From: Candidatus Limnocylindria bacterium
GTDB taxonomy: Bacteria > Patescibacteriota > Saccharimonadia > Saccharimonadales > JAGQNK01
Assembly (NCBI GenBank): GCA_035489815.1
Contig: DATHJH010000013.1
Location: forward strand, 1 to 59,537
Direction of reading: 5' to 3'
Length of the DNA stretch: 59,537 nucleotides
In this document: in pieces, positions 10,021 to 18,875 of the stretch
Numbering within the stretch: position 1 is the first letter of the stretch
Layout of the letters: each line of letters starts with the position of its first letter
The notes under the pieces: model-generated
Told to the model about the DNA's origin: nothing
The model's database searches: none
The model's input: the letters and a program-made list of their open reading frames with translations, nothing else
Program-made: the position numbers and the translations under genes

Positions 10021-10146
10021 CTGACCCACCCTCACTTTTCTCCCACCCCCTGTCATTCCGGCCTTGAGCCGGAATCCAGGATAATGGGCTATCCTCTGGA
10101 CGGCCGGATCAGGTCCGGCATGACGGAAATAGTGAGTGTGGGTCAG
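10021..10146. mobile_element. REP-doublet MITE-like element, family R3
   Basis: Ends CTGACCCACCCTCAC / GTGAGTGTGGGTCAG; internal REP pair; GGTCAGTTCC repeated on both flanks. Confidence 0.8.
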
Positions 10147-10219
10147 GGTCAGTTCCCAGCACCAGTACATGTGGTGTATACTGAAGTGGTCTGCTATCAG
10201 TAATGGAGGAGTGACCCTC

Positions 10220-10621
10220 GTGAGTACTACTATTGACCAACAGTTTGTCGAATATATCGTAAAATCGCTTGTCAGCAATCCTGACGCAGTTAAAATTGAA
10301 CGCCGCATAGACGAAAAGGGCGTGCTGCTGGAACTCACCGTAGATGGTGAAGACCTGGGCCGGGTTATTGGCAAACGCGGCGCTACTGCCCAAAGCCTCC
10401 GTACGCTGTTGCGTGCGCTGGGTACAAAGAACGATGCCCGCTATAATCTAAAGATTATTGATCCAGAAGGCGGCGTAAGGCCTGTAGCAAGTAGCGCTCA
10501 AGGCTCTGCCGTACAGGATGACAAACAGGAAGATGGTGAAGGTGCCACCAGCAAGAAAGAAAGTGATGTTGTTACTAATACCCGGAAGGAACTAGAAGAC
10601 CTGGATGATCTGGACATATAA
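10220..10621 (+). CDS. khpA: KH-domain RNA-binding protein KhpA
   Basis: VEYIVKSLV.NPD.V, DLGRVIGKRG KH motif; GTG start after GGAGG; follows rpsP. Confidence 0.9.
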   Translation: MSTTIDQQFVEYIVKSLVSNPDAVKIERRIDEKGVLLELTVDGEDLGRVIGKRGATAQSLRTLLRALGTKNDARYNLKIIDPEGGVRPVASSAQGSAVQDDKQEDGEGATSKKESDVVTNTRKELEDLDDLDI

Positions 10622-10733
10622 GAGGGGATGATTTCCCCTCTTATCGCGCGGTGTCCCGAATAAATCGGGACTCCGGCTGTTCTCCCCTCGGAAGCTAAAA
10701 AGAATCTTTTGGAGTAAATCCAAAAGATTCTTT
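10621..10733 (+). repeat. Three-hairpin structured repeat R4, copy 1
   Basis: AGAGGGGA-TGATT-TCCCCTCT; GTCCCGA-ATAAA-TCGGGAC; 15-bp stem with GTAAA loop; homologous layout at 18634-18745. Confidence 0.7.
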
Positions 10734-10766
10734 GATTTAATTTCACATCGACTTCAGGGGACAAGG

Positions 10767-10893
10767 CTGAGCCACCCTCACTTTTTTCACTGCCCCTGTC
10801 ATTCCCAGCTTGACTGGGAATCCAGGTTCTGATCAATAACACTTCTGGATACCGGATCAAGTCCGGTATGACAGGAAGGTGAGAGTGGAGCAG
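10767..10893. mobile_element. Family R3 element with REP doublet (degenerate ends)
   Basis: CTGAGCCACCCTCAC ... GTGAGAGTGGAGCAG with an internal REP pair. Confidence 0.7.
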
Positions 10894-10903
10894 GAGGCAG
10901 GGG

Positions 10904-10932
10904 TTGCAATGGGAGGGGGTTGTCGGTATAGT
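10904..10932 (+). promoter_or_regulatory. Strong sigma70-type promoter with no convincing downstream gene
   Basis: TTGCAA-17 nt-TATAGT. Confidence 0.65.
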
Positions 10933-10939
10933 TGCTTTT

Positions 10940-11055
10940 AGTCTACAAAGACTCGGAATCTTAAAAACAAAAACGATTGGAGCTCATGCGAGCCATCAAT
11001 TTGATGGGAGCTTTATGTGAAGAAAAGACCCGGTAATAATCCGGGTTTTTTCTTT
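10940..11055 (+). ncRNA. Candidate small RNA (about 115 nt)
   Basis: Bounded by the promoter at 10904-10932 and the terminator at 11025-11055; internal hairpins. Confidence 0.45.
11025..11055 (+). terminator. Intrinsic terminator
   Basis: AAGACCCGG-TAATAAT-CCGGGTTTT followed by a T-run. Confidence 0.8.
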
Positions 11056-11056
11056 G

Positions 11057-11244
11057 GAACCTATCCAAAATCTTTTCACCACGGCCGAGAGCAGTTTTCG
11101 GGTGTGAGCCGCTTGTTTTTTGGTTTGAAAGGTACCTAGTAAGTACCTTTCGGAGCACTAGTCTGATTAGAAGGCGAGCGGATTGCATGCGAACTTCTAT
11201 GTGGAGAAGGGTCGGAGTCAGAGGAAGAGATCCTGGATGGGTTC
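11057..11244. mobile_element. GAACC-MITE copy A (subtype 1)
   Basis: Ends GAACCTATCCAAAATCTT / AAGAGATCCTGGATGGGTTC; central AAAGGTAC..GTACCTTT hairpin; homologous to copies B, D, F. Confidence 0.9.
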
Positions 11245-11321
11245 TCAGATGCGTAAGCTCCATACCCACAACCGGAAAACCATTTGCCATACTCTGGAAT
11301 GTGTTGGCGCTAGCAGGAGGA

Positions 11322-11960
11322 TTATATTGTGGTTGTATTGGCAACCTGAGATTGTATACTTTCAACGAATGTTGCCAGAAGACTCGCATTGTCCTCCAGA
11401 GAAGAGTAGGCCCGTAGTGCCATAAATCCACGGGTGCCCTCTACCTGCCACTGGCCCATGGGCGGGGCCGCGTGCCATTCATCATAATTGAATAAAAGTA
11501 CCGAATCATTCAGTGTCTGTGTCACGGTTCTGGCGATTATTGGATTTAGTGCGGGGATGGTAGTTGCCGGCTCTGCCTCCATAGTAGGATCGCTGCTGTG
11601 TAAGGTGCCGCACGGTTTATCCGGAGTGGCAACGGCCCGGGCAAAGGCTATCTCTGCCTGAGGGCCGTCGCTACGGTGTATGGCAATGGTATCAACATCC
11701 GTATGATAGACATCAGGCTCCATAGTGAAGGACTTCGTCTGATATTCTACTGCAACGGGTACAGCGGCCAGAGTAGGAGTGGTATTGAGGCGGACAAGGT
11801 CTATGACATGTGCCGAAAATTGTTTGACTTGCTGCGGCAGATCGTCAGGCAAAATGAGGCGGCCGTCTGAACCGCGTGTCAGTTTTTGCATAGTATCGCA
11901 GCTGCTGCTAGGAAAACTGCAACCTCGATCAAGGTCTGGTGTCGGAATAATGAGAGCCAT
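11322..11960 (-). CDS. Hypothetical protein (possibly cupin-like)
   Basis: 212-aa ORF; LFNYDEWHAAP segment only loosely recalls ureidoglycolate-lyase cupins. Confidence 0.5.
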   Translation of the reverse strand: MALIIPTPDLDRGCSFPSSSCDTMQKLTRGSDGRLILPDDLPQQVKQFSAHVIDLVRLNTTPTLAAVPVAVEYQTKSFTMEPDVYHTDVDTIAIHRSDGPQAEIAFARAVATPDKPCGTLHSSDPTMEAEPATTIPALNPIIARTVTQTLNDSVLLFNYDEWHAAPPMGQWQVEGTRGFMALRAYSSLEDNASLLATFVESIQSQVANTTTI

Positions 11961-12078
11961 AACCCAAGCTAGTATACTACCCGTGATTCCGGGATCATTT
12001 TATTTTGGCAGAAGGTACGCAGGTACTGGTAATCTCTGTGGATAAATGTCTGGCTGGAGAGCTGCTGGCCAGGTGTTG

Positions 12079-12528
12079 CTACTCGGCGGATGCCATGCTG
12101 AGCGATGCAATATGAGCGCCGTTGGTGAAGAGAATATATGACTCTAGCACTTCACACGGTTGGGGTCCGTCAACAACGACGGTCAGGGGTACGGTTACGT
12201 TCTCGTATCCAGGGCTCGATGCTTCCCCAGCCTGTCCAATAATGGGGTCCCGATCTGTCTCAGCACACCTGACGGCAACAAAGGTCTTGTCAGCACCATC
12301 ACCGTCTAGCAGTGCTCCTATGCCAGAGGAGGGATTGTGATAGCTTGCCCTGACTTGCCCTTCCAGGCAGGTCACCGGGAATGTCAGCGCCGCGTCCGAT
12401 TCGGCCGAAGCATCCGGCGTAGAGTCATGCCGGACTATGCCAAACCCCACAGCCACAATGCACCCCAGGCTAACCATCAGCAGTCTTCGGGGAAGGGCTT
12501 CCGGGTTGGTTTGGAGGAAATTGCCCAC
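12079..12528 (-). CDS. Hypothetical membrane-anchored protein (start uncertain)
   Basis: ORF 12079..12585; GTG at 12528 chosen; hydrophobic helix LLMVSLGCIVAVGFGIV. Confidence 0.55.
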   Translation of the reverse strand: MGNFLQTNPEALPRRLLMVSLGCIVAVGFGIVRHDSTPDASAESDAALTFPVTCLEGQVRASYHNPSSGIGALLDGDGADKTFVAVRCAETDRDPIIGQAGEASSPGYENVTVPLTVVVDGPQPCEVLESYILFTNGAHIASLSMASAE

Positions 12529-12573
12529 GGGTGTCCCTTTGCAATTAGTATTTTGTACTATATCATGATAGAT

Positions 12574-13227
12574 ATGAAAGTTCAAATAATTAGTCTCTTT
12601 CCAGAGATGTTTCCGCCTGTGCTGGAGACTTCCATGTTGTTCAAGGCCAAGGACAAGGGCATTGTAGAGTATTCCTACATCAACCTGCGGGACTTTGGTT
12701 TGGGGCCGCGCAAAACGGTAGATGATACTCCGTACGGCGGTGGCGACGGCATGCTACTCAAGCCCGAGCCGCTATTTGCCGCAGTAGAACATGCTATAGG
12801 GTACGACCCTGTAGCAAAGGTGTATCTGATGACGCCTCGCGGCGAGCGGTTTGTTCAGAAACGGGCACAGGAGATTGCGGACGAGAAAAAGGGGATGATT
12901 ATCATCTGCGCCAGGTATGAAGGCTACGATGAACGGATTACTGCACTTGTAGACAGGCAAATCAGTATCGGCGATTTTGTACTGACAGGCGGCGAACTCC
13001 CGGCCATGATGCTGGTAGATGCGGTTGTGCGGCTCCTTCCGGGCGTGCTCGGGGGCGAAAAGAGCGCAGAGATAGAAAGCTTCAGCCATGGCAATAACCT
13101 GGAGTTCCCTCAGTACACCAGGCCAGAAGATTTTCGAGGCATGAAGGTTCCAGAAGTACTCCTTAGCGGAAATCATGCACAGATAGAAGCTTGGCGTAAG
13201 CAGCAATCCGACGCACAGAAGAAGTAA
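12574..13227 (+). CDS. trmD: tRNA (guanine-N1)-methyltransferase TrmD
   Basis: MKVQIISLFPEMF, VDDTPYGGGDGM, CARYEGYDER, SIGDFVLTGGE, VPEVLLSGNH. Confidence 0.98.
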   Translation: MKVQIISLFPEMFPPVLETSMLFKAKDKGIVEYSYINLRDFGLGPRKTVDDTPYGGGDGMLLKPEPLFAAVEHAIGYDPVAKVYLMTPRGERFVQKRAQEIADEKKGMIIICARYEGYDERITALVDRQISIGDFVLTGGELPAMMLVDAVVRLLPGVLGGEKSAEIESFSHGNNLEFPQYTRPEDFRGMKVPEVLLSGNHAQIEAWRKQQSDAQKK

Positions 13228-13237
13228 GGGAAAAGAG

Positions 13238-13272
13238 CAGCCCGGGCTCGAATTTATTTCGAGCCCGGGCTG
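13238..13272. terminator. Perfect 15-bp hairpin after trmD
   Basis: CAGCCCGGGCTCGAA-TTTAT-TTCGAGCCCGGGCTG. Confidence 0.6.
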
Positions 13273-13317
13273 ATTAGAAAAACCGCAAGGTTTGTCTCAT
13301 CAGGCGAAGCCGCCGAA

Positions 13318-13362
13318 AACCATGCTGAGATCGAGAAGTGGCGCAAGGCACAGAGCGGATAA
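13318..13362 (+). pseudogene. trmD: Second, diverged copy of the trmD 3' end
   Basis: Encodes NHAEIEKWRKAQSG* versus NHAQIEAWRKQQSDAQKK* in the intact gene. Confidence 0.8.
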
Positions 13363-13391
13363 TTGCCCTAGATAAAGTAGAGAGCTATAGT
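13363..13391 (+). promoter_or_regulatory. Promoter for the 13418 orphan gene
   Basis: TTGCCC-17 nt-TATAGT. Confidence 0.5.
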
Positions 13392-13417
13392 TCAGGAAAC
13401 TAATAAGGATACAAAGC

Positions 13418-13849
13418 ATGGCTCATGAACATGAATCACTAATTGCACACATCACTGCCACTCCCCAAACAGAGCTAACGTTTCAAGCCATAACCGTTGG
13501 TGATACAAGCACTATGATCGTTGCTGATCGTACTTGTTTTAGCGTGGGGTTTGTAGTTGCCGGTGAGGATCAATGCAATATGACGTATCGGCTGACGGAC
13601 AGAGAAGGTGAAAAGCCGTGGGACCTGGATGTTCTGAATCAAAGATCTAGTATGATAGCTACACGGGCGACACTTAGAGGAGAAGGGGTGATAGGGCTGG
13701 ATCCTGGGGTCGTGGGCGAAACCCGTGAGACTCTGGGCCCTGACGGGGAGCCCATTGCAGTGGCTGCTCTTTCGCACTCTGAGGTGGTATTGGGCATTGC
13801 GGCGATTGGTCACTTTGAAGTGGTGAATCTGCCCGAGCCTACTCTCTGA
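13418..13849 (+). CDS. Hypothetical protein (orphan)
   Basis: 143-aa ORF with AAGGA RBS and upstream promoter. Confidence 0.55.
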   Translation: MAHEHESLIAHITATPQTELTFQAITVGDTSTMIVADRTCFSVGFVVAGEDQCNMTYRLTDREGEKPWDLDVLNQRSSMIATRATLRGEGVIGLDPGVVGETRETLGPDGEPIAVAALSHSEVVLGIAAIGHFEVVNLPEPTL

Positions 13850-13869
13850 TCACGTCACTACACGACCTG

Positions 13870-14043
13870 TTAGTAGTTAAATCCTCCGCCGTTGCCCCCG
13901 CCGCTATCGCGCATAAAGAAATAGTAGACTAAGCCATAAACTACCACGGCGATTACCAGGTAGATGACTACCCATTGCCAGGTCGGCCGTTTGCCGTATC
14001 CGTGTGATTGTTTTTGGGGTGGCTGTGCATTTAAGTCTGCCAT
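13870..14043 (-). CDS. Small single-pass membrane protein (57 aa); not in the ORF track
   Basis: MADLNAQPPQKQSHGYGKRPTWQWVVIYLVIAVVVYGLVYYFFMRDSGGGNGGGFNY; AAGGAG RBS. Confidence 0.75.
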   Translation of the reverse strand: MADLNAQPPQKQSHGYGKRPTWQWVVIYLVIAVVVYGLVYYFFMRDSGGGNGGGFNY

Positions 14044-14426
14044 AGGTAACTCCTTTCTTTACTCACTATACATAAGCAGTATACTCGCCCTAAGGCTTCC
14101 GGGACAGGAATTGCAGCCTCTATAGTGGCTCTACTGCCGTTACTTGCAAACCTTAGGCGGTGCTGGCTGCACTACAGTATTTAAAGCAAATTGGAGTACA
14201 CGTGGCGGCAGAGAACCCAACTACGATCCTGGGTATAGAGACGGGCGGTGAAGGATACTTCCACTGGATAGACTGGTAAAGGTAGTATTGCCAACGGGGC
14301 TTGGGAAGTTGGAAGTAGGCTTCACGACCGAAAGTCGATAACACCCTGAGCATCAATCTTCTGTTACAAAACAAGGACACGTCCCAGACTTGCTATACTA
14401 GGTAAGTACTCAATAAGGAGGGTGTC

Positions 14427-14810
14427 ATGAGATTATTTGCCATCAAGCCGGTTTACGCCCACTGCGATTTGCCTTGCGGCGTGTATGACCCGGCGCAGGC
14501 TCGCATAGAGGCAGAGTCTGTTCACAAGATTTTAGAAAAATATCCGGACTTGGACCATGAAGAGGATCGCTGGCGGGCGGTGTTCATCAAGGAACAGCGT
14601 CTGGAACTGGTCAAGCACCACCTGTGGGTGCTGTGGACAGATTATTTTAAACCCGAGCATTTAGAGAAATACCCTAACCTGCATGATCTATTCTGGCAAG
14701 CAACTAAACAAGCTGGCGCGGTCAAAAAATCTGTGGACAAAGCCGACAGCCAGAAATTGCTGGACATGATTGATGAAATCGCCAAGCTCTTCAAAGCAAC
14801 TAAATCCTAA
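14427..14810 (+). CDS. sodN: Nickel superoxide dismutase precursor
   Basis: Nickel hook HCDLPCGVYDPA after an 11-aa leader; AAGGAGG RBS. Confidence 0.97.
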   Translation: MRLFAIKPVYAHCDLPCGVYDPAQARIEAESVHKILEKYPDLDHEEDRWRAVFIKEQRLELVKHHLWVLWTDYFKPEHLEKYPNLHDLFWQATKQAGAVKKSVDKADSQKLLDMIDEIAKLFKATKS

Positions 14811-15123
14811 ATTTCCACTGGTACTTCGCCAAATATACGGACACAGCATGATGCCGGTCCTGCCGCCCGGTACGGTGGTGTATGGTTGGCGCTGGTTCCG
14901 ACGGCTAAAACCCGGCGACATCGTAATCTTCTTTCATAACGACAAAGAAAAGATCAAACGTATAGAAAAGATTACTGACGGGAAAGTCTATGTAGTCGGT
15001 GACCACCAGGACGTCAGCACCGACAGCCGCCACTTTGGCTGGCTGGACAAGGAAGCAGTAGTAGCCAAACTCATCTGGCCCCGAGCCCCCAAAAACAGGG
15101 CCGAAGGGTTTGACTCTCCCTAA
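14773..15123 (+). CDS. sodX: NiSOD maturation peptidase (S26-like)
   Basis: GHSM.PVL..G, KEKIKRI, VVGDH..VSTDSRHFGW; overlaps the sodN end. Confidence 0.9.
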   Translation: MKSPSSSKQLNPKFPLVLRQIYGHSMMPVLPPGTVVYGWRWFRRLKPGDIVIFFHNDKEKIKRIEKITDGKVYVVGDHQDVSTDSRHFGWLDKEAVVAKLIWPRAPKNRAEGFDSP

Positions 15124-15358
15124 TTTCCAACTGCCACTAAATCCCCCCTTGTTAGAGGAACGTCCTTTTTGTTCTTTTTGTTCCTTTTTTTTGTTATCGG
15201 TTTTTCAAGGCTTGGATACCAACTATATTGGCCCTTGGCCAATTATTGTAACAATCCCTTCAGGGATTGTTAACTTCCTGCAGCCCTCCCGGGCTCCTGC
15301 GAAAAACTGATTGGGCGGGCAAGTACCGGCGCTACCGTACTCCTGAGGATTGTTTGAG

Positions 15359-15395
15359 CCAAAAAAGCCCTTTTTTGTATCCTGGGCTTTTTTGG
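15359..15395. terminator. Probable bidirectional terminator between convergent sodX and ndh
   Basis: CCAAAAAAGCCC ... GGGCTTTTTTGG 12-bp inverted repeat. Confidence 0.55.
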
Positions 15396-15565
15396 TGAGT
15401 TTCCGAAAGGATGCGGCTAGCCGGTACTTGATCCGAACAGTCATGTTTTCGTAACCGTCCGGGGAGGTTTTTGCATACACTCCACCCCGCGGCGAATCCT
15501 CTCGCCGTGGGGACCCCGGTTTTGACCGCAAAAGTATCATCACATGCTTCTTGGAGAGAAGAAAA

Positions 15566-16780
15566 TCAAACCTCGCCGGATTCGTACATGACCTTGGCCA
15601 GCTTGGCGTCGCAGGTGGGGCAGTTGTCTTCCTCGTCGTCCTCTGCCAGCCACCGTTTGACTGCCATTTGCCAGGGTTCGTAGTCGCGGTAGGCTATGAA
15701 GTCGGCGGCTCGCCGCAGCCACCAGCCCAACCGCCCATAGATGCGGAACCTGCCCCACAATACGGCTGCCCAGCGCGGTCCGGCAGGCATGACATAAATG
15801 GGCTTTTTGGCTTTGTAGGGGCTAGGATCCTGTTTGTTCGAGATGCGCTTGAGATTATGGGTCACGAACTTGGCGTCAGTGATGGCTACCTGGGCCATGC
15901 CGCTGTAAGGCGTGTCGGCATTGTCGCCAATGACGTAGACGCCTGGTTCTGCCTGCAGGAACTGATCCACCCGGACCTTGTGGTTGGTGGCCAGTTGAAA
16001 CCCTTGGGCTGTAAAAAAAGGATTGTTTGTGACGCCGGCAGTCCAGATGACGGTGTGGCTGCGGATGGGTTTGCTGTCTACCATCAGGGCGTCGGCAGTT
16101 TGGGCTTGCACGGCTTTGTTGACCATGACTTTGACGCCGGATTTCCTGAGCTGGCGTTTGACGCGGAAGGATATATCTTTGGGCATGCGGGGCAGCACTC
16201 TAGGTGCGGCCTCTACCAGGTCTACATGGATTTTGTGTTTGGGGGCGTTGTGCTGTTTGGCAATTTTTTTGATGTAGGACGGAAGGGCACCCGCCAATTC
16301 CACTCCGGTCGGCCCGCCGCCGACTACAACATAGTTGAGGTCGGTCCGCCCTTCTTCTACCATTTGCTTATGGAGGTGATCTTTCAGGGCCAGGGCGTCG
16401 GCAGGGGATTTAATGCCAAAGGCGAACTCCTCTAAGCCTTTAATGCCAAAGTAGTTAGTAGTGACGCCCAGGGCGCAAATGAGGGCATTATACTGAAAGG
16501 TCTGGCCATCTTCAGCGGTGACGGTTCGACTCTGTCGGTCCAGGCTGGTGGCTTTGCTAATGACTGTGTGGACGTTTTTGCCGACAAAGATGCCGCTCAA
16601 GGGGACGCTGGCAACCTTCATGCTGCCGCCGGTTGCGACGCGGTAGAGGGTACCGTAGATGCGAAAGTCTGCATGTTCGGCAATCAGGGTTATATGAAAG
16701 TCCGGGTCATTGGCCAGTTCCAGTGCGGCCTTCACCCCGCCGAACCCGCCACCGATGATTACTACTTTGCTTTTGCTCAA
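15566..16780 (-). CDS. ndh: Type II NADH dehydrogenase-like flavoprotein
   Basis: VVIIGGGFGG and VVVGGGPTGVELAG dinucleotide motifs, VIWTAGV, YVIGDNA; TTG start after AGGAG. Confidence 0.9.
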   Translation of the reverse strand: MSKSKVVIIGGGFGGVKAALELANDPDFHITLIAEHADFRIYGTLYRVATGGSMKVASVPLSGIFVGKNVHTVISKATSLDRQSRTVTAEDGQTFQYNALICALGVTTNYFGIKGLEEFAFGIKSPADALALKDHLHKQMVEEGRTDLNYVVVGGGPTGVELAGALPSYIKKIAKQHNAPKHKIHVDLVEAAPRVLPRMPKDISFRVKRQLRKSGVKVMVNKAVQAQTADALMVDSKPIRSHTVIWTAGVTNNPFFTAQGFQLATNHKVRVDQFLQAEPGVYVIGDNADTPYSGMAQVAITDAKFVTHNLKRISNKQDPSPYKAKKPIYVMPAGPRWAAVLWGRFRIYGRLGWWLRRAADFIAYRDYEPWQMAVKRWLAEDDEEDNCPTCDAKLAKVMYESGEV

Positions 16781-16814
16781 GCTTTTCTCCTGCTCTTGTT
16801 GGAATGTGTCTTGC

Positions 16815-16887
16815 TGTCATGCCGGGCTTGACCCGGCATCCAGTCAGTAGCGATCCTGCTAGATTCCGGCTCAAGGCCGGAATGACA
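16815..16887. repeat. CGTC-type REP doublet
   Basis: TGTCATGCCGGGCTTGACCCGGCATCCAG plus inverted CTAGATTCCGGCTCAAGGCCGGAATGACA. Confidence 0.9.
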
Positions 16888-16966
16888 CAGGGGTAACGTG
16901 AATCTATATATAGTCCACGGCTCGTTATGTCTCATTCCTAAACATGGTACCATAGTGCTAAAGGTT

Positions 16967-18625
16967 ATGGACCTATTTATAGACACACTCAAAAAGGCTG
17001 GGTTTGAAGGCGCCATAGACGATTCTGTGGAAAAGCGGGACGCCTACAGTCACGACGCTTCACTATTTGAAATGATGCCCCAGTTAGTAGTGGCTCCTAA
17101 AACAACCCGGGATGTGCAGCGGATCGTCACTGCCGCTGCAGCCACCAAAACCAAGGTGAAGGGGTTGTCGCTGACGGCCCGCAGTGCCGGCACGGACATG
17201 TCCGGCGGGGCGGTGAATGATTCGGTCATTATAGACTTCAACAAATACCTGCAGAAGTTTGAGGACATTGACGGGGCGTCTGCTCGTGCCCAACCTGGTA
17301 TGTTTTACCGTGATTTTGAGAAAAAGACGCTCAAGCACCGGCTGTGGATGCCTAGTTTCCCGGCCTCGCGCGAACTCTGTACCATTGGCGGCATGGTTGC
17401 AAACAATTCAGGTGGTGAATTATCTTTGCGCTATGGCAAAACGGAAAAGTTTGTAAATGAGCTAAAAGTGGTGTTTGCCGATGGCAAGGAATACGCTGTC
17501 AAGCCGCTGGACCGGGCGGGGCTGAAGAAAAAGCTGGCCCAGAAGGATTACGAAGGGGCAATTTATAGAAAAGTCTTCAAGCTGGTGGATGGCCACTATA
17601 ACGAAATCAAAGCAGCCAAGCCCAAAGTCAGCAAAAACTCTACCGGTTACAATCTGTGGAATGTCTGGGACCGCGACACCGGCATTTTTGACATGACACA
17701 GTTGATCGTCGGGTCCCAGGGGACGCTGGGGCTGGTAACAGACATTACTTTTCGCCTGGTGCCGCAAGAGCCGTTTTCTGGTGTGCTGGTGGCCTTTATG
17801 AACAAAAAGAACATGAAAAAACTGGCTTTGACCATCAACGAGGTGGTAGCCCAGCATCCCACCAGTTTCGAGGCTTTTGACAACTACACCCTGATGTTTT
17901 CTATAAAATTCTTTCCGTTTTTCCGTAAGACATTGGGGTGGATGGGACTTATCAAACTGGCTATTCAGTTGATTCCGGATGCGCTTATTTTGCTGCGGGG
18001 TATTCCTGCCATGGTGTTGTTGATTGAATTCACCGGTCAATCCCAGGAAGAAGTCGATCAAAAGATTTCGCGTATGCATGGTGTGCTAAAAGATAACCGC
18101 CTCCAGGCTATTGAAGAAGACAATACCGTTGCAAAGGCCTGGAAATTCCGTGTCATGCGCCGTGAAAGCTTCAACCTGCTGCGCAAAAAGGTCAAAGACA
18201 AGCATACAGCACCGTTTATAGATGACTTTGTGGTTCCGCCAGAGCATCTGCCTGCCTTTCTGCCCAAACTCCGCAAAATCATAAACAAGTACAAGCTGGT
18301 GGCCACCGTTGCCGGGCATATGGGTGACGGCAATTTCCATGTGATTCCCCTCATGAAGATAGAGGAACCCAAGGAGCGAGCCAAATTGCAGCCGGCCATG
18401 AAGGAGGTGAATGAACTTGTTCTAAAATACGGCGGGTCCCTGTCTGGTGAACATAATGATGGTATGATCCGCGGCCCGTGGCTGACCCAAATGTATGGAC
18501 ACAAGGTCGTTGGCTATTTCAAAGAGGCCAAAGAAATATTCGATCCTGACGGCATCTTTAATCCGCATAAAAAGACTGATGCTTCTTGGGATTTCTCCAT
18601 GAAGCACATTCGGGAACACTTTTAG
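16967..18625 (+). CDS. FAD-linked oxidase (GlcD/D-lactate dehydrogenase-like)
   Basis: RSAGTDMSGGA, CTIGGMVANNSGG, GSQGTLGLVT, GHMGDGNFH, LSGEHNDG, DPDGIFNP. Confidence 0.9.
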   Translation: MDLFIDTLKKAGFEGAIDDSVEKRDAYSHDASLFEMMPQLVVAPKTTRDVQRIVTAAAATKTKVKGLSLTARSAGTDMSGGAVNDSVIIDFNKYLQKFEDIDGASARAQPGMFYRDFEKKTLKHRLWMPSFPASRELCTIGGMVANNSGGELSLRYGKTEKFVNELKVVFADGKEYAVKPLDRAGLKKKLAQKDYEGAIYRKVFKLVDGHYNEIKAAKPKVSKNSTGYNLWNVWDRDTGIFDMTQLIVGSQGTLGLVTDITFRLVPQEPFSGVLVAFMNKKNMKKLALTINEVVAQHPTSFEAFDNYTLMFSIKFFPFFRKTLGWMGLIKLAIQLIPDALILLRGIPAMVLLIEFTGQSQEEVDQKISRMHGVLKDNRLQAIEEDNTVAKAWKFRVMRRESFNLLRKKVKDKHTAPFIDDFVVPPEHLPAFLPKLRKIINKYKLVATVAGHMGDGNFHVIPLMKIEEPKERAKLQPAMKEVNELVLKYGGSLSGEHNDGMIRGPWLTQMYGHKVVGYFKEAKEIFDPDGIFNPHKKTDASWDFSMKHIREHF

Positions 18626-18633
18626 GGGTATTG

Positions 18634-18745
18634 AGAGGAGATGACTTCTCCTCTTTGGCGCGCGGGCAAAATGAAATACATTTTGTCCGGCTGCTCTCCT
18701 CTCAAAACTGACAGACATATTCTGAAGTAAATTCAGAATATGTCT
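18634..18745 (+). repeat. Three-hairpin structured repeat R4, copy 2
   Basis: AGAGGAGA-TGACT-TCTCCTCT; GCAAAATG-AAATA-CATTTTGT; 14-bp stem with GTAAA loop. Confidence 0.7.
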
Positions 18746-18875
18746 GAGTTAAATAATGGGGCTGCTCCTTCCAGATATATTTTTGCTTGATCAAAGCGTG
18801 GATTTAGGAGTAATCAGATATCCTCGGGCTGTTCTCCCCCGAAAGTTTGATGGTTTATTGCCTGACTTGCAAATT

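Follow-up and report, generated by a model that had tools for sequence, protein, structure and literature searches.

A structured repeat family of Saccharimonadales with three-strand co-variation that fits an intrastrand triple helix

Two copies of a three-hairpin motif, A (10618-10733) and B (18633-18746), lie on the plus strand of contig DATHJH010000013.1 (assembly GCA_035489815.1), a stretch of 59,537 nucleotides from a bacterium of the order Saccharimonadales (Saccharibacteria) that was analysed at its full length and is called the window here. In both, a purine-rich hairpin, P1, is followed by a second hairpin, P2, a pyrimidine tract, and a third hairpin, P3. Judged from sequence, the way in which P1 and the tract co-vary fits the three strands of a triple helix and not an RNA switch. 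That copies A and B belong to a family of interspersed repeats, probably mobile and non-autonomous, that is limited to this one order of Saccharibacteria is a proposition on which we are evenly poised. An earlier note on this DNA had described both copies and suggested a switch-like RNA or the single-stranded end of an HUH-type transposon. Their positions and anatomy are as it described, and each copy is far more stable than shuffled sequences, with folding energies of −59.4 kcal/mol for copy A and −57.7 kcal/mol for copy B (z −8.2 and −10.2, respectively; none of 200 dinucleotide shuffles was as good).

Three strands that change together

The family was searched with a regular expression and then with a covariance model (R1) trained on 14 of this genome's copies. 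Its anatomy is drawn from 125 aligned copies. P1 is a hairpin of 9–12 bp with a purine-rich 5′ arm (ATGAG...), a first loop of 3–7 nt, and a 3′ arm ending in CTCAT. It is followed by a near-invariant CGCGCSG and by P2, whose base (S-S, C-G, G-C) is conserved, in the base and flank pattern CGCGCSG/SSGC. The apical helix of P2 is free to vary yet paired, and its usual loops are AATAAA, GAATAC, and AATGAA. An invariant GCTG precedes the pyrimidine tract. The spacer between P1 and the tract, which comprises CGCGCSG, P2, and SSGCTG, measures ~35–50 nt.

At least 12 P1 classes are distinguishable, each with its own matching tract. The purine arms of copies A and B are near-palindromic, and parallel and antiparallel readings are indistinguishable there; the sense of the tract is therefore decided by the asymmetric P1 classes, such as GAGACAAACC / CTCTTTTCC, in which the parallel reading alone works. 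Five classes read as follows:

P1 5′ arm GAGACAAACC, tract CTCT-TTTCC (the antiparallel complement would be GGTTTGTCTC)
P1 5′ arm GAGACACCC, tract CTCT-TCCC
P1 5′ arm GAGGAAACC, tract CTCC-TTCC
P1 5′ arm GAGAGGAGG, tract CTCTCCTCC
P1 5′ arm GAGACAACCG, tract CTCT-TTCCG

The matching tracts of the asymmetric classes identify the tract as the mirror image of the P1 3′ arm, A-T pairs going with T and G-C pairs with C. Across 72 distinct combinations of P1 and tract, scored with at most one skipped layer, 531 of the 582 purine positions match in parallel, against 445 ± 8 in shuffled pairings (z 10.3; 0 of 5,000 shuffles as high). The best antiparallel register reaches 388 of 582, against 369 ± 4.5 after shuffling. 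The earlier note had the tract pairing and co-varying with the P1 5′ strand: the co-variation is real, and its sense is parallel, not antiparallel, throughout the family. The match also depends on the register, falling from 91.9% to 46–58% after a shift of 1–3 nt. Among 63 distinct sequences, the third base of the purine-pyrimidine layers is canonical in 408 cases and non-canonical in 26, and C-G layers near the tip of P1 face a C in 81 of 90 cases. Layer 3 is a G-C pair with C in 86 copies and an A-T pair with T in five, with no mixed case; these five span three P1 backgrounds and include copy A, whose tract T at 10680 goes with the A-T pair of P1 layer 3. This co-variation explains the Y in the motif GCTGYTC. 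In a replication set of 41 further copies from other genomes, scored only at the layers left free by the search pattern, 136 of 148 positions match, against 113 ± 3.5 (z 6.4).

As no copying process yields mirror repeats, a Hoogsteen-type third strand is the simplest explanation. The units follow each other on one strand as the purine-rich strand, its Watson-Crick pyrimidine partner (the two forming P1), the connector hairpin P2, and the mirroring pyrimidine tract. A class III intrastrand pyrimidine-motif triple helix, R-Y-(P2)-Y, has this layout. The tract would occupy the P1 major groove and run in the same direction as the purine strand, in U.A-U and C+.G-C layers with C.C-G near the tip. 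The two ends of P2 lie side by side, which would place the tract at the foot of P1, as triplex geometry needs. We infer that the triplex forms, either in a transcript or in transient single-stranded DNA, and that the spread or retention of the element depends on this fold. The second proposal draws on the fact that copies in both orientations keep the fold equally well (three-strand consistency of 94.7% for sense and 95.7% for antisense copies).

The earlier note had argued that structure rather than sequence is under selection. In the family, structure is conserved as well as sequence: the P1 hairpin is found in every class, and all six apical pairs of P2 vary on both sides, with 95.7% of the cells of the model alignment paired. 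The covariation score of P2 is 0.604, against 0.169 ± 0.008 for shuffled and 0.08–0.15 for slid controls. Conversely, P3 is not universal; a hairpin of at least 11 bp lies within 75 nt downstream in about one-third of the copies. Its tip, GGA-GTAAA-TCC, resembles that of P2, and in this genome such tips are nearly confined to the element. P3 is an accessory terminator-like module. That GTAAA-loop hairpins are the general terminator type of the genome was rejected, since only 19 exist, nearly all of them within the element. A coding function on either strand was also rejected, as the short reading frames are not alike in length or sequence from copy to copy and P2 varies in length by steps that are not multiples of three, and so was, by inspection, a boxA/boxB-type antitermination site, with which only GCTCT is common, in an unfit position and orientation. 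An extra small hairpin, CCCCATGAAAC-AGG-GTTTCATGGGG, stands between P1 and CGCGC in two copies of this genome (G000, contig positions C36:1094-1176 and C30:5771-5848) and at loci L088 and L139; it recurs in other genomes and looks like a nested mini-element.

The window holds three full copies and two orphan 3′ fragments of the family, as listed here:

10618..10644, plus strand: P1 of copy A, with the purine strand ATAAGAGGGGA (10618-10628), the loop TGATT (10629-10633), and the Watson-Crick strand TCCCCTCTTAT (10634-10644)
10619-10621, plus strand: stop codon TAA, inside P1 of copy A, ending a KhpA-type KH-domain gene (10136-10621)
10645-10651, plus strand: conserved CGCGCGG of copy A
10649-10675, plus strand: P2 of copy A, GTCCCGA-ATAAA-TCGGGAC on a CGG/CCG base, with the loop ATAAA
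10676-10679, plus strand: conserved GCTG of copy A
10680-10688, plus strand: pyrimidine tract TTCTCCCCT of copy A, with a parallel (Hoogsteen-type) match to AAGAGGGGA at 9/9 positions
10699-10733, plus strand: P3 of copy A, a 15-bp AT-rich hairpin with the loop GTAAA and the tail GATTTAATTT, terminator-like on the plus strand
13221..13303, minus strand: third full copy, matched by the covariance model, of class GAGACAAACC / CTCTTTTCCC, without P3
18623-18625, plus strand: stop codon TAG, ending an FAD-linked oxidase gene (16898-18625), with P1 of copy B beginning 7 nt later
18633-18655, plus strand: P1 of copy B, GAGAGGAGA-TGACT-TCTCCTCTT
18659-18665, plus strand: conserved CGCGCGG of copy B
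18663-18689, plus strand: P2 of copy B, CAAAATG-AAATA-CATTTTG on a CGG/CCG base, with the loop AAATA
18690-18693, plus strand: conserved GCTG of copy B
18694-18702, plus strand: pyrimidine tract CTCTCCTCT of copy B, with a parallel match to GAGAGGAGA at 9/9 positions
18712-18746, plus strand: P3 of copy B, a 15-bp hairpin with the loop GTAAA, terminator-like on the minus strand only in a simple scan, with no plus-strand T-run
18758..18772, plus strand: orphan 3′ fragment GGGGCTGCTCCTTCC, a GAGGAAACC-class tract lacking P1 and P2
18825..18845, plus strand: orphan 3′ fragment CGGGCTGTTCTCCCCCGAAAG, a pattern match with three mismatches (model E = 0.39)

Much of what the earlier note had read from copies A and B is seen here. 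They begin on the stop codon (A) or 7 nt past it (B), their P1 hairpins differ by compensated changes, and their P2 and P3 stems are unrelated but stand in the same places between conserved linkers. It had given P3 as 15 bp in copy A and 14 bp in copy B, and the true length is 15 bp in both. The partial third copy that it placed at about 18824-18845 exists, though only as an orphan 3′ fragment, apparently derived by deletion from the copy at contig C42:89800. The fragment at 18758-18772 and the full minus-strand copy had been missed. The latter is antisense to both flanking plus-strand genes, and its 3′ end abuts the TAA of the gene at 12337-13227. A different REP-like repeat, with GTCATTCCC...GGGAATCC hairpins and TCAAG/CTTGA loops, is found at 10795-10830 and 18878-18955. 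Perfect hairpins of at least 8 bp with these loops number 62 in the genome and are its commonest hairpin type.

Distribution, sites, and orientation

The covariance-model search, a check that the earlier note had proposed, found many homologues in Saccharibacteria. This 1.40-Mb, 45-contig genome (G000) carries 17 solid copies. Among the 61 genomes of the same order, 41 are positive, with 1–25 copies each, and they span 38 of the 58 genera. A sample of 301 genomes of the phylum gave matches in the same order only, with none in the two genomes of other orders of the class or in ~284 genomes of other classes. We also scanned 185,579 species genomes with the pattern. Among the matches listed were 80 loci. 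Every one of the 47 that bear the label Candidatus Saccharibacteria, Saccharimonadales, or Saccharimonadia (two labelled only "bacterium") was borne out by the model, and none of the 33 from other phyla was. The comparison with Rfam, likewise proposed in the earlier note, yielded no matching family: with Rfam 15, the sole hit in the window is a tRNA, and the element is unmatched at gathering and relaxed thresholds, the best sub-threshold matches being generic hairpins on P3. We found no paper describing the repeat family or joining Saccharibacteria to triple helices.

About 10 of the 17 copies of this genome lie just past the stop codon of a co-directional gene, among which are groEL and genes for RNase J, SSB, a MacB/FtsX permease, and a CHAP/LysM hydrolase. 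Four are antisense, inside operons or between co-directional genes, and three are ambiguous. One of the antisense copies (C14:25345-25429) separates the ribosomal-protein genes L29 and S17; the downstream gene, which looks like S17 from its first residues, has its own AAGGAGG site. An insert in this orientation is thus compatible with a highly expressed operon. Among relatives, P3-less copies are biased toward antisense (25:10), with 21 wedged between convergent stop codons. Kilobase flanks gave 13 sense and 13 antisense copies, and an independent set gave the orientations (−,−) 15 times, (+,+) 11 times, (−,+) seven times, and (+,−) three times. The upstream genes share no common theme.

Individual sites are filled in few genomes. 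The site after the copy-B gene is occupied in two of 30 genomes, this one and its nearest relative G003, and the element is absent in 31 of 31 metagenomic relatives. In the closest metagenome relative of the gene (82% identity), the downstream region is unrelated and no clean empty site is definable. Exact-protein look-ups found no near-identical strain on record. The junctions after groEL in G000 and G003 are similar and short (TAAGGTAATGA versus TAAGGTAATGAG), and those after the oxidase gene read TAGGGGTA(T/A)TGAG in both. At both sites the P1/tract classes of the two genomes differ, and each class is internally consistent. The orphan fragments next to copy B show decay or repeated hits. 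The patchy presence with 0–25 copies per genome, the shared subfamilies, the fragments, and the lack of an orientation rule suggest that the element is an interspersed and probably mobile or conversion-prone repeat. What defines it would be the need to fold as a single strand with a triple helix. Being independent of orientation to the host genes, this constraint seems to sit at the level of the element (its spread, its retention, or DNA metabolism) and not of the host mRNA.

Other observations concern the surroundings of the copies and the repeats of this genome. Copies within a few hundred bases of contig ends (C28:333, C5:242, and C36:1094 in G000; G016:C11:61, G033:C2:65, and G025:C9:611) fit repeats that break short-read assemblies. 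The copies at C4:75363-75443 and C4:96594-96693 are each flanked on both sides by a hairpin repeat, AGCACTC-TCAAGTCAA-GAGTGCT. A second family consists of the hairpin GAACAGCC-ACA-GGCTGTTC followed by TCACC (C8:12250, C8:12534, and also on C5, C18, and C29) and adjoins tRNA genes or tRNA-like T-arm sequences. A repeat of ~60 nt or longer (...cccaagtacgaaaagcctggcccggtagtgccaggtGGCTGTTCTTgtaacaaagc...) occurs four times (C31:37, C31:8331, C35:12844, and C42:69811) and could represent one end of an insertion sequence. In metagenome locus L184, the orthologous gene is followed by a similar "gaacccattccaaatctcc" start.

The triplex and its rivals

Several observations weigh against a triplex carried by a mobile repeat. 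The copies are related by descent, so the z-scores of the shuffles overstate independence and the count of classes is the safer measure. Adjacent C+.G-C layers are needed, four in copy A and two in copy B. Runs of such layers destabilise RNA triplexes at neutral pH, and two or more destabilise the telomerase and MALAT1 triplexes in cells (PMC7583470). In the commonest class, C+ layers take turns with U layers, and a triplex is more plausible there than in copies A and B. For many classes one layer must be skipped, where P1 has a conserved C.U mismatch. The layers at the tip are C.C-G, a combination that is among the tolerated non-canonical triples, though weak (PMC7583470). RNAalifold pairs the C of layer 3 with a G of CGCGC, in conflict with the assignment of that base to the triplex. 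Furthermore, from the mirror symmetry one would expect a purine-motif triplex on the complementary DNA strand just as much. Such triplexes are possible in DNA and not in RNA, and pyrimidine-type intrastrand triplexes can form in RNA (PMC4666352). On the side of mobility, no terminal inverted repeats or target duplications of the kind that mark MITEs were seen by eye in the 125 aligned copies, and no long autonomous version with an internal gene occurs in this genome. No cognate enzyme emerges either: among the 61 genomes, Y1_Tnp (PF01797) is found in 13 of the 41 with the element and in six of the 20 without it, and none is present in the five richest, G054 (25 copies), G024 (19), G041 (17), G043 (14), and G016 (13). 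The reverse transcriptase domain RVT_1 does not track the element, being absent from G000 and from most high-copy genomes (G003, G012, G016, G018, G041, G043, and G054), although it is present four times in G024. Two further observations, the 19:1 sense orientation of P3-bearing copies relative to the upstream gene among relatives and the filling of the groEL 3′ site in five of 30 genomes, far above chance, hint at a role in host RNA.

A host role of this kind stays the main rival because of these two observations. The element would then be a cis-acting module of mRNA 3′ ends, in which the P1 triplex and P2, set between the stop codon and a terminator, block 3′-to-5′ exonucleases or strengthen termination. 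It would stabilise transcripts such as that of groEL, as a bacterial counterpart of the ENE/MALAT1-type stability elements. We regard this as possible but rather unlikely. Besides the orientation of the P3-bearing copies, it is favored by the ~10 of 17 copies directly past a co-directional stop codon, by the terminator-like P3 of copy A, and by the groEL site itself, where the genomes without the element carry an ordinary A-stem-T terminator. However, P3-less copies are mixed in orientation, with the antisense excess given above and 15 versus 11 in the second set, and the upstream genes lack a theme. Four copies of this genome are antisense inside operons or between co-directional genes, as between L29 and S17, and the three-strand match is just as good in antisense copies, even though RNA does not form purine-motif triplexes (PMC4666352). 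The 3′ end would also lie outside the triplex, unlike in ENE and MALAT1. We give tentative credence to the stronger form of the proposal, in which the transcript folds into a natural intramolecular RNA triplex of 9–11 layers (U.A-U, C+.G-C, and C.C-G), made of a hairpin and a tethered pyrimidine strand, and sense copies, together with the terminator, act as a stability or termination module of mRNA 3′ ends. If true, bacterial mRNA ends would have their first example of a long major-groove RNA triplex, carried by a small repeat spreading in minimal Saccharibacteria genomes. Copies A and B lie between a stop codon and their own terminator-like P3, and the KhpA-like and FAD-oxidase mRNAs therefore most likely carry them in their 3′ untranslated regions, as a compact 3′-end block that the P1 triplex, P2, and P3 would build together. 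Under the mobile-repeat interpretation that we prefer, this block is treated as a side effect or a secondary use and not as the reason for the existence of the family.

A non-B structure at the DNA level, H-DNA or an intrastrand triplex on either strand, might instead be kept for its effect on replication, recombination, or genome plasticity. The same proposal has been made for the BoxC/TMECO repeats of Escherichia coli, and TMECO loci are linked with rearrangement (PMC4666352). This precedent, a mirror symmetry that is independent of orientation in a family of mixed orientation, and copies near contig ends and beside fragments and other repeats are consistent with it. We nevertheless consider it improbable. 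A single strand carries all three strands of the proposed triplex, with a structured connector of 30–45 nt, an arrangement more fitting for a free single strand than for H-DNA driven by supercoiling, and the covariation of P2 and P3 has no role in H-DNA.

Movement as a REP/BIME-like element or a folded IS200/IS605-type end, with single-stranded DNA as the substrate of an HUH (Y1/RAYT) transposase, is in our judgment very unlikely. This is the HUH half of the earlier proposal, and it accords with a hairpin-rich, modular, multi-copy intergenic repeat and with six Y1_Tnp matches in this genome (one full-length, C29:26195-26560, and five weaker sites). Their distribution, however, is unrelated to the element: the domain is about as frequent without the element as with it and is missing where copies are most numerous. 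In addition, no long version with an internal gene exists in this genome, and the conserved 5′ tetranucleotide of REP elements is not seen. With the enzyme set aside, the remaining half of the idea, a single-stranded fold of a mobile element, may still be right.

Last, a switch-like regulatory RNA, in which the tract and the P1 3′ strand compete for the P1 5′ strand by Watson-Crick pairing, is scarcely credible: the quasi-palindromic purine strands of copies A and B do allow 7–9 antiparallel pairs, a fold that RNAfold picks for copy B, but antiparallel complementarity is near the shuffled level across the family and impossible in the commonest classes, orientation is mixed, and neither a conserved downstream gene, an expression platform, nor an Rfam match is present.

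Comparison with known systems

Long stacks of base triples are rare in natural nucleic acids, and those known from bacterial RNA, in riboswitches and group II introns, are short. The strand order proposed for the element is that of the single-stranded R-loop-Y-loop-Y DNA triplexes reportedly designed by Sklenar and Feigon in 1990, with a purine strand, a Watson-Crick pyrimidine strand, and a Hoogsteen pyrimidine strand parallel to the purine strand. Those molecules are synthetic, have short loops and perfect homopurine tracts, and are stable mainly at acidic pH.

With the ENE and MALAT1 elements (reviewed in PMC7583470), the family would share major-groove stacks of 9–11 U.A-U and C+.G-C layers, Hoogsteen pyrimidines, and, for sense copies, a position near transcript 3′ ends. 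ENE and MALAT1, known from eukaryotes and their viruses and not from bacteria, clamp an A-rich 3′ tail between two U-rich strands and thereby sequester the 3′ end. By contrast, the Saccharibacteria element has no U-rich internal loop clamping a 3′ A-rich tract: its purine strand is a hairpin arm, its third strand would be a downstream internal tract, P3 follows in about one-third of the copies, and about half of all copies are antisense to genes.

REP/BIME elements and REPINs are also short, hairpin-forming, modular, intergenic, often located past stop codons, and variable in copy number among relatives. The element differs from them in that it does not co-occur with Y1_Tnp, in that its sequence is conserved across a whole order, and in its three-strand mirror symmetry, which is not a feature of REPs. 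Riboswitches and attenuators have mutually exclusive Watson-Crick helices upstream of a regulated gene; no such arrangement was found, and neighbors and orientation are mixed. With Rho-independent terminators, the likeness lies in P3, made of an A-tract, a stem, and a T-tract, and relatives without the element have such hairpins after groEL. However, P1, P2, and the tract are not features of terminators, P3 is missing in about two-thirds of the copies, and that of copy B lacks a plus-strand T-run. The family adds one more case to the various structured repeats that ultra-small Saccharibacteria genomes carry, fitted exactly between stop codons, terminators, and start codons, and the covariance model lets annotators tell such repeats from regulatory RNAs.

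The closest published bacterial parallel is the BoxC/PIT/TMECO group of intrastrand-triplex repeats of E. coli and other bacteria (Hoyne et al. 2000; Holder et al. 2015, PMC4666352). Its BoxC/TMECO DNA motif, which is poorly understood, is the sole repeat-type case of a bacterial triplex that we found in the literature. Like these repeats, the family is multi-copy and strictly intergenic, carries three triplex-compatible blocks on one strand in the class III order (5′ purine, pyrimidine, 3′ Hoogsteen), and has no consistent orientation, no theme among its neighbor genes, and no transposon genes; in both, the complementary strand would form the other triplex motif. TMECO is ~37 nt long and G/C-rich, with loops of 1–6 nt, near-identical copies, and a purine motif as its stable form. 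In the Saccharibacteria element, the Hoogsteen block is instead tethered through the co-varying P2 hairpin of 30–45 nt with its conserved base, the classes, at least 12 in number, differ by coordinated changes in three strands, some classes have a terminator-like P3, and the distribution is limited to Saccharibacteria. Spacers of intrastrand triplexes are defined, like the class nomenclature, in this literature, as 1–6 nt in ITxF and 0–10 nt in Hoyne et al. (PMC4666352), and the second spacer of the element is longer than either. Because of its long and structured connector, the family would escape ITxF-type searches, which allow loops of no more than 6 nt. Its classes amount to about a dozen natural "compensatory triple mutants," a kind of comparative evidence usually missing for triplexes, and the use of long triplexes by bacteria therefore becomes directly testable.

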